Assembly: GCF_054482525.1 (NCBI RefSeq)
Contig: NZ_CM137006.1
Strand: one strand, 5' to 3'
DNA: 64,000 nt
The notes below the pieces were generated by a model, which ran no database searches, was not told the origin of the DNA, and saw nothing but the letters and a program-made list of their open reading frames with translations. The translations under genes were made by a program, and so were the position numbers. This document shows, one piece after another, positions 9,379 through 12,116 of the stretch (within the stretch, counting starts at the first letter, position 1; every line of letters starts with the position of its first letter).

Positions 9379-10062
9379 ATGACTGAATGGCTTAATGCAC
9401 ATTTTGGTGCAGACGCAGCTACCTATCTTAGCTTATTAGTCGGCGTACTGGCACTGTTTGGTATTGGGGGCGGTGTTACATATAGAATCAGACAGCAAAA
9501 CAACATAAAACAGAAGGCAAAGAAAACCGAGGGTGATGTGAACCAGGCCGGGCGGGATATTAATCAGACCACCAACGTTTACCACACATCCAATGAATCT
9601 ACTGAGGACCCTGTAAAAAAAAAGCAAGATGAACATGATCTGAAGATAATCGACCAGATCCTTGAATTGCTGCCTTATGAGGATACTACTCAATGGGTTG
9701 AGCAGAGCTACCTGAGCGGTATACGGCAAGATGTTTGCTTAAACATTGAAAAAGCTGAAAAATTTAGCGGTGAAAAGTATCGGTTATTCAATACTGAAGT
9801 GAATGGTGCGAAAGACGCTTTTTTGGACGCTATGACCGCATACGTAGATAGTACGCTACCATTTATGAGTGTTGATTACCCGAACAGAAAGCCAGTGATG
9901 CTAAGCCTTCCCCATGACTGGAAGAGTAAGAGTGTTGAATCGGAGGCAAACTTCCGCTTTCATCAGCAAAATGTGCGTGAAACATCGGGGGGGATGATTG
10001 CGCGCTATGAGGATTTTGTCAGGACATTTAAGGCTCATGGATTCATAAGCGATAAACTGTAA
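9379..10062 (+). CDS. Hypothetical membrane-anchored protein (227 aa), no recognised family
   Basis: ATG preceded by a purine-rich stretch. There is one N-terminal hydrophobic helix (YLSLLVGVLALFGIGGGV), a Gln/Asn/Lys-rich linker and a ~140-aa C-terminal domain. The gene is followed by a terminator. Confidence 0.7.
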   Translation: MTEWLNAHFGADAATYLSLLVGVLALFGIGGGVTYRIRQQNNIKQKAKKTEGDVNQAGRDINQTTNVYHTSNESTEDPVKKKQDEHDLKIIDQILELLPYEDTTQWVEQSYLSGIRQDVCLNIEKAEKFSGEKYRLFNTEVNGAKDAFLDAMTAYVDSTLPFMSVDYPNRKPVMLSLPHDWKSKSVESEANFRFHQQNVRETSGGMIARYEDFVRTFKAHGFISDKL

Positions 10063-10140
10063 AGGCGCAGTGGGTCAGCGAACACCGCAACGACAGAACC
10101 GCGTAAGCGGTAAAATCAGCTTGTTAACTGGCGAGTTTAT

Positions 10141-10166
10141 AGCCGTCCCTCCGGGGCGGCTTTTTT
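10141..10166 (+). terminator. Rho-independent terminator downstream of the 227-aa gene
   Basis: Hairpin agccgtccc tcc ggggcggc followed by tttttt. Confidence 0.65.
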
Positions 10167-10234
10167 ATGACTATAATCGACAGAATCACCTGAACGTCCA
10201 GGTGGGTTTCCCTGACAGGACGTCAAGGAATGTT

Positions 10235-10267
10235 CGCTTTGTGCCAGGAGCGGACGTTGCCAGCATT
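10235..10267 (+). repeat. 33-bp imperfect direct repeat, copy 2
   Basis: See copy 1 at 8871-8903. In one frame both copies encode R-x-VPGAD(I/V)A, suggesting scars of the same ancestral coding sequence. Confidence 0.7.
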
Positions 10268-10416
10268 GAGTTTTCAGTTTTCAAAGGTATATCTTTAGAT
10301 TTAGTTCACTTAGAATGAGCGTGTTAAAGTTTTCGGTTATGTGAGTATATTGAACATAACAAATAAACAATAATTTTTGTATTCCATTTAAGATATAAAA
10401 AAGAGGGATTTGAGTT

Positions 10417-11202
10417 ATGTACGATTATAGTTTTTTACTTACTCCATCTACAGGATTTGTTAAAGGATTATGTGGAGTTTGGTCGAATGATTTCTCTATA
10501 AATGATGATTCTGACTCTGATTTAGGGCAAACAGATATTCATTTACTTTCATCTCCTCATTTGAATATCATATCCGACCCAAATGAATTGGCTTCCAAGT
10601 TAAAAGGTTTGTTGATGCTCATGAACGGCGCACTTAGCGTTCTTTATGGTTTTGAAAGATATCAATCTTTTGGTCCTCTTTCTATTTCTGGAAGTGAAGG
10701 CATTAATTACTCGGAAATATGCGGCTTTAAATCAATGGATGTAACTCAGGTAAATCCCTTTAATTTCCATGACATACAGCAACCACACCCTCGCGCTGAT
10801 AATTTTTCACGATTAATTAATTTATCATCTAAACATGAATCCTTACGTGTTGTTTTAGGTATGTGTGCCTTAGGTTATGATTGGGTTAATCTTTATCGTT
10901 TGTGGGAAACAATTAGAGAATATGTATATGATAAATATGTGAAAGGTATACTAAATTTTCCCGACGCTTATAAAGGCAAGAAATATCAGAGAGATAAAGT
11001 AATTAGCATGGCTTTTAATATTGATGAAAAGGAAATCAGCAGATTCACGGGCACTGCTAATAGCTTTGAACTGTTAGGGTATCTTGCGAGACATGGAAAG
11101 GGAAGTTCCGGAGGGATATTAAAAAATCCGATGTCAAGAGTTGACGCAAGCAATTTCGTACACAAAGCAACTTACAAATATTGTAAGTTATTTTTGATGT
11201 AA
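10417..11202 (+). CDS. Hypothetical protein (261 aa), visibly AT-rich, no recognised family
   Basis: A long ORF with an upstream aagagggatttgagtt SD-like sequence. The codon composition is very AT-rich compared with neighbours. I can read no catalytic motif. Confidence 0.65.
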   Translation: MYDYSFLLTPSTGFVKGLCGVWSNDFSINDDSDSDLGQTDIHLLSSPHLNIISDPNELASKLKGLLMLMNGALSVLYGFERYQSFGPLSISGSEGINYSEICGFKSMDVTQVNPFNFHDIQQPHPRADNFSRLINLSSKHESLRVVLGMCALGYDWVNLYRLWETIREYVYDKYVKGILNFPDAYKGKKYQRDKVISMAFNIDEKEISRFTGTANSFELLGYLARHGKGSSGGILKNPMSRVDASNFVHKATYKYCKLFLM

Positions 11203-11363
11203 GTAAAAAGTTGAAGCTATAATACTCAAAGTATCGAAAACTACGTTCGTCGTGCACTCGAAAACAATATGCTTATTGTGTCTGCACTAATTACTCAAGG
11301 TCCGAGAAAAATGGCGAAGCTCATCTTTTTCAGGCTTCGCCAACTTGAGTTATTGGTTAAAAT

Positions 11364-12116
11364 TCATTTAGGAATAATAGAATGCAATTCGTGACTCACC
11401 TGGATTTCATAGTGTTTCAATAGTTCTCCGATGTTAATTCCTACTACCTTACGAACTGCGCCGAGGGAGAAGTTAAGCTCCTCAATGCCCGGCCGATCTG
11501 GCGTTGAATTCATATAGTGTCGGCACGCACGGACAATTGACTCGACGATCAACGATAGCGGAGACTCAGGTGCAATCTCGGAGCGAATCGCCGTAAGAGA
11601 GAGTCGGAGCTCCTTCAAAGAATCCGAGACTCGTGCTGGATCCTCTTGAGCATATGGCAGATAAAGAGAACTCTTGTCTTCCAATAAATGGATCACCCGC
11701 AGAGCAATTTTCTCGTCTGGGCGATGCGATAGAAATTGAAACATTAGCCTCTTTCCTCCCTCCAAGCACTCCTTCATTAGTGATTCGTGGTCACGTTTCC
11801 ATTTTCGCAAATACTCGGCGGGGTAGCCCATACCGCCATTCTTATCAACTAAATCAGCACAAGCTCCGCACAACCATATAGCATTTTTTATGCTCTTCCG
11901 CTCTGTTTCTGACTGAGACATGTCATAGCGCGGTCCGCCAGGGCTCGCCGCGCAGATATGCGCCGCCTCACCCGTCTTGATAGAAAGATTTTCCGCCAAT
12001 TGATCCGGGCCGATTGTTACCCTATGACAAGAGGGATTGCTACAAATATATGTAGCGCGCTCTGCTACCTTACCTACAACGCTTGGAGGAAAGTTGTGCC
12101 TATTTGTCTTGGTCAT
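11364..12116 (-). CDS. HNH-type (beta-beta-alpha-Me) endonuclease domain protein, 250 aa
   Basis: The N-terminal domain carries CSNPSCHR…GEAAHICAASPGGPRYD…KNAIWLCGACADLVDK, i.e. two Cys pairs plus His and Asn of an HNH/HNN core. The C-terminal ~130 aa are unassigned. Confidence 0.7.
   Translation of the reverse strand: MTKTNRHNFPPSVVGKVAERATYICSNPSCHRVTIGPDQLAENLSIKTGEAAHICAASPGGPRYDMSQSETERKSIKNAIWLCGACADLVDKNGGMGYPAEYLRKWKRDHESLMKECLEGGKRLMFQFLSHRPDEKIALRVIHLLEDKSSLYLPYAQEDPARVSDSLKELRLSLTAIRSEIAPESPLSLIVESIVRACRHYMNSTPDRPGIEELNFSLGAVRKVVGINIGELLKHYEIQVSHELHSIIPK

Follow-up and report, generated by a model that had tools for sequence, protein, structure and literature searches.

Three genes at one locus

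What do three genes wedged between a yeeP-like gene and a restriction-modification (R-M) operon do, and do they work together or share no more than a site? The genes lie at positions 9379-12116 of a 64,000-nucleotide stretch of contig NZ_CM137006.1 (assembly GCF_054482525.1); this whole stretch is called the window here, and all positions are counted from its first letter. According to the open reading frame (ORF) list and the RefSeq annotation, G1 occupies 9379-10062 on the + strand (227 aa, WP_000141343.1), G2 occupies 10417-11202 on the + strand (261 aa, WP_061089765.1), and G3 occupies 11364-12116 on the - strand (250 aa, WP_059356353.1). A first-pass annotation, made from the letters alone, had given the same three ORFs with the orientations +, + and - and had placed them between a yeeP backbone gene and an R-M/DarTG operon, and both points were borne out by the flanking ORFs and the RefSeq coding sequences (CDSs). 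To the left of G1 were the Ag43 gene and a yeeP-like GTPase gene (7841-8752, - strand) of a CP4-44-like island, and to the right of G3 an HTH_73 gene was followed by hsdM-hsdS-darT-darG-hsdR. Positions 8701-13400 were 100% identical to E. coli EC_J_9 (NZ_CP075062.1), in which the CDSs of G1, G2, and G3 were annotated too. Each of the three represented a conserved protein family, and none was a chance ORF.

The explanation that we favor, with a probability of about 0.65, is that the locus is a hotspot of the P2 Z-region type carrying two cassettes, one with G1 and the other with G2 and G3, and that the three genes would be functionally independent single-gene anti-phage modules. G2 is an already known defense gene, and G1 and G3 have already been published as computational defense predictions.

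The cassettes are bounded by P2 Z-region repeats

A 24-nt imperfect palindrome, GTCCGCTCTGTGCCAGGAGCGGAC, was found at 8868 (R1) and at 10232 (R2), with a variant at 12266 (R3), where 0 copies were expected by chance. The left boundary repeat R1 (8868-8903, + strand) consisted of the palindrome GTCCGCTCTGTGCCAGGAGCAGAC and 12 further nt and corresponded to the P2 Z-region "left inverted repeat" at its inner end. It was 91% identical over 35 nt to positions 84-118 of AJ512680, the record of the Z-region lysogenic-conversion site of P2-EC46 (Nilsson et al. 2004, Mol Biol Evol 21:1), and the match overlapped the inner end of the left inverted repeat annotated there (3-115). The right boundary repeat R3 (GTCCGCTCCTCGCTCAAAGCAGAC, 12266-12289, + strand) was of the "right inverted repeat" type and agreed in 21 of 21 nt with positions 3169-3189 of the same record, at the beginning of the right inverted repeat annotated there (3166-3256). 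The internal copy R2 (10232-10267, + strand) lay exactly at the left junction of a 2,046-bp insertion containing G2 and G3, and a third, internal copy was also present in P2-EC46 (1611-1634), between ORF1 and ORF2. The right junction of the insertion was at most 12 bp from R3, and the homology of the window to the E. coli locus L002 stopped at 12301. E. coli strains with G1 only carried one hybrid repeat exactly at the site of the 2,046-bp segment; the G2-G3 indel therefore arose via recombination inside the repeat. What was kept of the repeat upstream of G2 in Klebsiella and Proteus was its right half, together with the next 20 nt or so; the DNA further left varied with the context.

Judged by these repeats, the segment 8868-12289 is a cargo hotspot of the P2 Z-region kind with the two cassettes named above, and the assignment of cassette boundaries to P2 Z-region repeats is new here. 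As in AJ512680, left, internal, and right repeat elements surrounded the cargo, and ORF2 of P2-EC46 is a G3-type HNH gene in the position and orientation of G3. The two sites differ in setting, since that of the window is located in a CP4-44-like island beside a yeeP-like GTPase gene and not between P2 D and ogr, and their cargo is not the same. The possibility that the boundary repeats were integron attC sites was rejected because they were of the P2 Z-region inverted-repeat type and had no GTTRRRY core. No recombinase acting at the Z-region-type repeats was identified, and a literature search combining yeeP with defense hotspots returned nothing.

Related copies of the repeat were present in the intergenic DNA of 1,372 of the 5,426 complete E. 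coli genomes. Elsewhere, GmrSD occupied a repeat-marked site of a P2-like prophage, flanked by a gpD-like gene and ogr, and other cargo was found at such sites after yeeP-like GTPase genes. In the G1-only strains, the gene beyond the right repeat encoded WP_001375260.1 (366 aa; L003 9298-10398 and L002 11374-12474, both on the - strand), a variant of DS-38 ("HEP2"), which is a validated HEPN/zinc-ribbon defense protein (PMC13092281). Validated defense genes thus alternate at this hotspot among E. coli strains.

G2 is the defense gene DS-29

The sequence of the G2 protein was that of WP_061089765.1, described as DS-29 ("HEP3") in the DefensePredictor study (PMC13092281, Science 2026); the sequence in Table S8 of that study matched the ORF of the window, so that no difference between G2 and DS-29 was present at the sequence level. 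The DS-29 clone was a transcription unit with this gene only, taken from NZ_RRWI01000012.1, where the gene order is likewise G1-G2-G3, and it was scored in E. coli MG1655 as defensive (TRUE) and replicated (TRUE) (PMC13092281 Tables S6-S8). It acted against T-even-like and other phages, with -log10 efficiency of plating values of 6.34 for Bas60, 5.0 for T4, 3.70 for Candy, and 1.26 for RB69 (PMC13092281). The description "uncharacterised", which the first-pass annotation had applied to all three genes, is no longer true of G2.

The only domain call made by the authors of DS-29 was HEPN-like_int, with an HHpred probability of 0.59 (PMC13092281). In our AlphaFold2 (AF2) model (predicted TM-score 0.80), G2 had an N-terminal α/β domain (residues 1-95) and a C-terminal helical domain, and a fold search supported a HEPN-like character of the latter (about residues 129-260, nt 10801-11196, + strand), which seems to resemble HEPN domains in structure; HEPN toxins and Abi proteins (HI0074/MNT-HEPN, AbiA, and DS-38) are among the closest known proteins. 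The family was small (32 clusters, nearly all from Enterobacterales) and contained the invariant motif F210-T-x-T-x-N215...G221...R225-H226-G227, of which the part from N215 to G227 was located in a low-confidence loop of the model. No Rx4-6H string was present in G2, and no two conserved columns of the alignment held R and H at such a distance; the R and H that were conserved in G2 are direct neighbors, R225-H226. It is plausible from the model that G2 works like a HEPN toxin, and its HEPN-like status is backed by fold and not by motif, so that G2 as a canonical HEPN protein is unproven. Three points go beyond the DS-29 publication: the fold search favors a HEPN-like domain, Rx4-6H is missing, and R225-H226 is a candidate dyad. 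Scans of Pfam, NCBIfam, and PHROGs gave nothing useful for G1 or G2, and neither had matches in sequenced phages.

The three genes are separable

The first-pass annotation had left open whether any two of the genes cooperate. The neighborhoods and co-occurrence of their homologues, together with the activity of G2 alone, favor independence. Among the complete E. coli genomes, G1 was present in 32 of 5,426 and the G2-G3 pair in 14, all 14 of them with G1, leaving 18 of the 32 with G1 and without the pair. All of the E. coli copies were at least 99% identical, and they therefore represent one island lineage. Klebsiella had G2 and G3 but not G1, again 161 nt apart, and at least three contexts were seen there: the leading region of a plasmid, a tmRNA-side island, and an SRAP/umuDC island. 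In Citrobacter (L016 6951-7040; also L017-L019), a 30-codon remnant of the 3' end of G3 with 80% identity was found where G3 would be expected, convergent to an intact G2, and both adjoined a KAP-NTPase pair and an SMC/AAA_21 protein. G2 homologues of 45-85% identity occurred without G3 in prophages, in an integrative and conjugative element (ICE), in a DUF2971/SIR2 locus, and beside KAP-NTPase genes, the first three settings being those of homologues of 45-77% identity. Neither G1 nor G2 was located within 8 kb of any of 21 full-length G3 homologues from other taxa. The G2-G3 pairing was limited to proteins at least 89% identical, and the linkage is therefore recent.

A fixed convergent block would also be expected if G2 and G3 formed one two-gene system, in which G2 senses and G3 executes or one of them restrains the other. 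The identical spacer, the recurrence of the block in Klebsiella, and its behavior as a single indel in E. coli agree with such a system. We consider it very improbable since G2 alone protects MG1655 up to 10^6-fold, the convergent genes are separate transcription units, G2 homologues of at most 85% identity lack G3, one lineage has a truncated G3 next to an intact G2, and a G2 relative was beside 0 of the 21 G3 homologues. The proposal that G2 might be a cryptic TIR partner of G3 was rejected as well, because G2 had no TIR- or flavodoxin-like fold matches and no invariant Glu, and the two genes co-occurred in one lineage only. The reading that fits best is that of three independent modules sharing a hotspot.

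G3 is an HNH nuclease fused to a DUF6650 domain

The first-pass annotation had read a zinc-ribbon HNH/HNN core in G3, fused to a C-terminal domain of unknown kind, and had counted the gene among three orphans. The core was confirmed and was invariant across the family (C25-x4-C30, A51-x-H53, N78, C83-x2-C86, and D91-K92-N93), with the correction that the first Cys pair is C25-x4-C30 and not CxxC. The term orphan was wrong for G3, whose family of about 250-aa proteins comprised more than 400 clusters over many phyla, including Pseudomonadota, Bacteroidota, Verrucomicrobiota, Cyanobacteria, and others. The HNH (HNN) domain with its Cys4 zinc ribbon (residues 9-118, nt 11763-12092, - strand) belonged to the Cap5/SPARHA effector subfamily. 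The PADLOC models of the endonuclease of the cyclic-oligonucleotide-based antiphage signaling system (CBASS) and of SAVED_HNH matched residues 5-119 with E-values of 2e-19 to 1e-9, and the SduA model matched too. The match to the PADLOC model PDC-M68A covered only positions 5-113 of its 253, the HNH part, and was not full-length; no literature on PDC-M68 was found. Against the PDB, the HNH domain hit the SPARHA HNH (9om4, 8e-14) and the Cap5 chains 8ysq, 7rwk, and 7rwm (range 8e-14 to 1e-8), of which 9om4 is the Argonaute-associated HNH-APAZ effector of SPARHA, switched on by filament formation (PMC12738770). HNH genes at the P2 lysogenic-conversion site, including ORF2 of P2-EC46, were also among the nearest relatives of G3.

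The C-terminal domain (residues 119-250, nt 11367-11762, - strand) was found to be DUF6650 (PF20355), the ThsG-type domain. This label came from precomputed Pfam (PF20355.5) and from some RefSeq records; with the local Pfam v3 model, G3 gave only a sub-threshold match in a consistent register, and with that model the HNH-fused subfamily goes undetected but for 1 of 25 members (E = 7e-4). RefSeq names near-identical proteins of the G3 family either "hypothetical protein" or "DUF6650 family protein" and leaves the HNH domain unnamed. A profile built from the C-terminal domain only gave 973 hits against 1.84 billion representative proteins, 349 of them at 1e-10 or better. The majority of the 973 were proteins of 150-190 aa, and four of five scanned in that size range were Pfam-confirmed DUF6650 (1e-24 to 1e-14). 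Proteins with transmembrane (TM) helices and DUF6650 and one TIR-DUF6650 fusion were among the hits, and HNH-DUF6650 proteins made up about 14 of the top 149. Residues E146, E158, S166, R171, C198, R199, R222, G226, and P249 of G3 were 87-99% conserved in 98 non-HNH DUF6650 proteins. By profile and by residue conservation, the C-terminal domain of G3 is a genuine DUF6650, and the predicted architecture is that of a gated nuclease, in which an HNH effector is joined to a DUF6650 sensor in parallel to Cap5.

DUF6650 has been named ThsG, the effector of type VI Thoeris, whose TIR partner makes the cyclic ADP-ribose (cADPR) isomer 2'cADPR; external 2'cADPR arrests the growth of cells bearing ThsG, AlphaFold 3 (AF3) models of ThsG show a hexameric ring with positive pockets between protomers, and the killing mode of TM-less ThsG was stated by its authors to be unknown (bioRxiv 10.64898/2025.12.03.692087). 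The C-terminal 130 residues of G3 resemble ThsG in being DUF6650 with the E, S, R, R, R, and G residues of the family. ThsG is DUF6650 alone or with TM helices and is always beside a TIR gene, whereas G3 is fused to HNH and has no adjacent TIR gene. The natural TIR-DUF6650 fusion among the hits, P0311 (312 aa), had TIR_2 at residues 11-143 (3.2e-18) and a DUF6650-like region at 164-242, and it provides a "Rosetta-stone" link between the signal-making and the signal-sensing parts of type VI Thoeris.

The neighborhoods of G3 gave no sign of a regular TIR partner. Around 21 full-length homologues in reference genomes, a conserved neighbor family was absent, and the neighbors were integrases, transposases, prophage genes, Lamassu, Shedu, McrBC, AbiV, and R-M genes. 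An ORF with a TIR domain was located within 8 kb in 2 of 24 G3 loci and was adjacent in none; in the 64-kb window none was detected, with limited sensitivity. Because there is no conserved neighbor and a TIR gene is nearby in just these two loci, G3 is placed by its genomic context outside type VI Thoeris, and it is not a system of that type. No CD-NTase or cyclase was found among the neighbors of G3, and SAVED was not matched, the models covering the N-terminal 120 residues only.

G3 might nevertheless be an orphan Thoeris-type effector, that is, an HNH DNase gated by 2'cADPR or a cADPR isomer, relying on a TIR cyclase whose gene is at another site of the genome or on a different mobile element. 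The role of DUF6650 as the effector domain of type VI Thoeris, the death of cells given 2'cADPR, the conserved polar family residues kept in G3, and the fusion P0311 are compatible with this. So are a TIR gene found at a distance of two genes in an island of Klebsiella and, in locus L040, an upstream protein containing TIR. We regard it as unlikely, given that TIR was not adjacent in 22 of the 24 loci, that the SRAP-G2-G3-umuCD block was found both with and without a TIR gene, that the binding residues of ThsG are unmapped, and that DS-27, a SMEK-DUF6650 single gene, defends in MG1655 without a TIR gene (PMC13092281). DS-27 is, like G3, a single protein with an N-terminal module and a C-terminal DUF6650, and it differs in having SMEK in place of HNH. 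Direct hhalign comparison of the G3 profile with DS-27 gave no signal, in what is a weak test with a single-sequence target.

It could also be argued that G3 is a selfish or restriction-like HNH nuclease, of the homing or modification-dependent type, rather than a signal-gated abortive-infection effector, and that G1 and G3 may have no role in defense. HNH domains are frequent in homing and restriction enzymes, the nearest homology label in PMC13092281 was "RM_Type_II REases HNH endonuclease", and many DefensePredictor predictions fail, the validation rate being 45%. The closest HNH relatives of G3 were conditional defense effectors (SPARHA, Cap5, and Shedu models) and not homing enzymes; in addition, the HNH domain is joined to a domain of the sensor type whose site residues are conserved, and a methyltransferase partner was not conserved. 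On balance, a selfish G3 is rather improbable.

The gated nuclease remains the preferred description of G3. It shares with Cap5 (SAVED-HNH, CBASS) and the HNH-APAZ protein of SPARHA the HNH subfamily and the order of an N-terminal HNH domain and a C-terminal regulatory or oligomerization domain, and it differs from them in its regulatory domain, which is DUF6650 in place of SAVED or APAZ, and in lacking a CD-NTase or an Argonaute as partner. What is new here, from domain analysis, is that G3 is a stand-alone, TIR-less HNH-ThsG-type fusion that has retained the signature site of DUF6650. More tentatively, and with a low probability, G3 might represent a previously undescribed class of stand-alone "HNH-ThsG" DNases that are gated by DUF6650 and have given up a TIR partner of their own, the trigger of which would be a cADPR-type signal supplied in trans by any TIR system or a nucleotide derived from the phage.

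G1 is a membrane-anchored cargo protein

The first-pass annotation had described G1 as a single N-terminal TM helix, a polar linker, and a C-terminal domain. The TM anchor was confirmed at residues 15-33 (nt 9421-9477, + strand; mean Kyte-Doolittle value 1.89) and was followed by a polar linker with an GDVNQAGRDINQ motif, and the C-terminal domain was modeled by AF2 as a four-helix bundle at residues 78-227 (nt 9610-10059, + strand), with a predicted local distance difference test score above 90 over most of this range. Owing to the charge bias around the TM helix (net charge of -2 on the N-terminal side and +5 on the C-terminal side), the C-terminal domain is most likely cytoplasmic. The fold search gave only generic four-helix-bundle matches. 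The family was tiny, with 16 clusters and 40 invariant columns.

In the superintegron of Vibrio alginolyticus, a G1 homologue formed a single-gene cassette between attC sites of the Vibrio cholerae repeat type (L093 5811-5948 and 6685-6822). Further solitary homologues were found as a prophage moron after tail-fiber genes, in an ICE, between a KAP-NTPase pair and Abi_2, and on conjugative plasmids. These settings show that G1 is a cargo gene of integrons and mobile elements, which is new here.

In conjugative plasmids of Yersinia (L101 4290-6493 and L102 5001-7207), the G1 homologue was followed, after a gap of 10 nt and in the same orientation, by a HEPN_RiboL-PSP protein and then by a CAAX/Rce1-like protease. 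This trio adjoins a tyrosine recombinase gene and may be a distinct three-gene system. A tight operon headed by a G1 homologue and including HEPN and CAAX protease genes was limited to the Yersinia plasmids. A conserved downstream partner for G1 was rejected, because the ORFs after the Vibrio and Pseudoalteromonas homologues were unrelated, and the second genes on plasmids were rejected as partners since they were unrelated to one another and to G2. The hhalign comparison of the G2 profile with the Yersinia HEPN protein gave no signal, which was again a weak test with a single-sequence target.

The Yersinia arrangement raises the question of whether G1 is a stand-alone defense gene at all. It might instead serve a HEPN-type toxin (G2 or DS-38) as its partner in the membrane, or act for mobile elements in exclusion or maintenance. 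The adjacency of E. coli G1 to the HEPN-like G2 or to a DS-38-type HEPN protein fits a partnership, and so do the genes that follow closely downstream on other plasmids (181 aa and 196 aa). The E. coli G1 has its own terminator and is separated from G2 by a repeat boundary, the second genes on the plasmids have no common relationship, homologues stand alone in the Vibrio integron cassette and in a prophage, an ICE, and a defense island, and G2 is active without G1 and accompanies G3 without G1 in Klebsiella. For these reasons, we find this alternative doubtful and retain G1 as an independent module.

Proposed mechanism and the evidence for defense

In the explanation with independent modules, each gene would act alone. 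The HEPN-like C-terminal domain of G2 would be a conditionally activated RNase-type toxin that halts the infection. Its active site would probably be the invariant R225-H226 dyad, and the α/β domain at the N-terminus would be the putative sensor. The DUF6650 domain of G3 would oligomerize and bind a small nucleotide signal or another infection cue, which is predicted not to be produced by an adjacent TIR gene, and the cue-bound domain would turn on the HNH nuclease, leading to degradation of DNA and abortive infection in a manner analogous to SAVED-HNH of Cap5. G1, as a cytoplasmic four-helix bundle tethered to the membrane, might work by itself in abortive infection or exclusion at the inner membrane, which is the most tentative of these assignments.

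The first-pass suggestion that the genes are candidates for single-gene immunity or abortive infection in a defense island was supported. G2 is protective when cloned alone, the DefensePredictor log-odds of G1 (5.34) and G3 (5.48) exceed the stringent cutoff of 4, both being predictions only (PMC13092281), and the two domains of G3 are of kinds found in defense systems. Homologues of all three genes were located in cargo sites of mobile elements and in defense islands.

Several points weigh on the other side. G1 and G3 are known as computational predictions, to which the validation rate of 45% applies (PMC13092281), and the mechanisms given for them are inferences. In fold, G1 is a helical bundle of a generic kind, from which no function can be read. 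Ligand binding and oligomerization of G3 are extrapolated from the preprint AF3 models of ThsG, and no signal-producing enzyme is linked to G3, as the TIR counts above show. Finally, G2 and G3 always co-occur in E. coli, and always with G1 (14 of 14), so that a functional link within this lineage is possible.

Composition, terminators, and flanking features

The stretch had been described as more AT-rich than its flanks. This holds for G1 (43.4% GC), G2 (34.6%), and the spacers, but not for G3, whose 48.1% equals the window mean (47.9%); the Ag43 and GTPase genes of the left flank had 57-58%. The genes had also been credited with their own terminators. An intrinsic terminator was located 3' of G1 (10141-10161, + strand; a 9-bp stem with 7 GC pairs and a following T-run), and a hairpin between the convergent G2 and G3, GGCGAAGC-13 nt-GCTTCGCC (11313-11341, - strand), which was read directly from the sequence and is followed by ATTTTT, is the likely terminator of G3; the terminator scan skipped it because its loop was longer than 8 nt. 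A clean terminator of its own was not seen for G2.

Another terminator-like hairpin (9283-9312, + strand; a 13-bp stem with 8 GC pairs and a T-run) was located about 70 nt upstream of G1, directly after a 55-aa ORF (9096-9263, + strand). A weak CsrC-like Rfam match (E = 0.39) overlapped it and is probably merely this terminator. Between the G3 cassette and the R-M operon, sub-threshold Rfam matches were found at 12880-12954 (- strand) to isrK (42.3 bits; gathering threshold 50) and to the c4-a1b1 antisense-target RNA (40.9 bits; 46.7), upstream of a small hypothetical ORF (12560-12814, - strand), and the region resembles an immunity RNA module of the P1/P4 type.

The R-M operon itself (13375-21994) was of type I and enclosed darT and darG, the gene order being hsdM-hsdS-darT-darG-hsdR; the HTH_73 gene preceded it (13030-13335, Pfam 3.5e-28), and an M48 metallopeptidase gene came after it. 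At the far end of the island, positions 2997944-3013084 of NZ_CP075062.1 (roughly 42900-58100 of the window if collinearity is assumed) contained a 1,652-aa AAA-domain protein and a fragment of a TOTE conflict-system primase. The same stretch held an inovirus Gp2-type gene, a YfjI-family gene, and the tyrosine integrase of the island, adjoining an RtT small RNA/tRNA site.

Implications

The decades-old Z-region repeat is a marker of cargo exchange common to P2-like prophages and CP4-44-like islands, and the exchange of DS-29 and DS-38 at a site of this type makes the repeat a useful anchor for mining more defense genes. G2 is a published defense gene, of which only the mechanism remains for study, and G3 is the most interesting remaining piece of the locus. 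Its HNH domain places an easily assayed output, the cleavage of DNA, on a ThsG sensor domain, which makes it tractable for studies of ligand binding and activation of DUF6650, and it allows one to ask whether nucleotide-sensing effectors function without a cognate cyclase. If a TIR signal did act on G3 in trans, it would imply an immune network with shared signals, and G3 would reveal what DUF6650 senses and how its activation is passed on.

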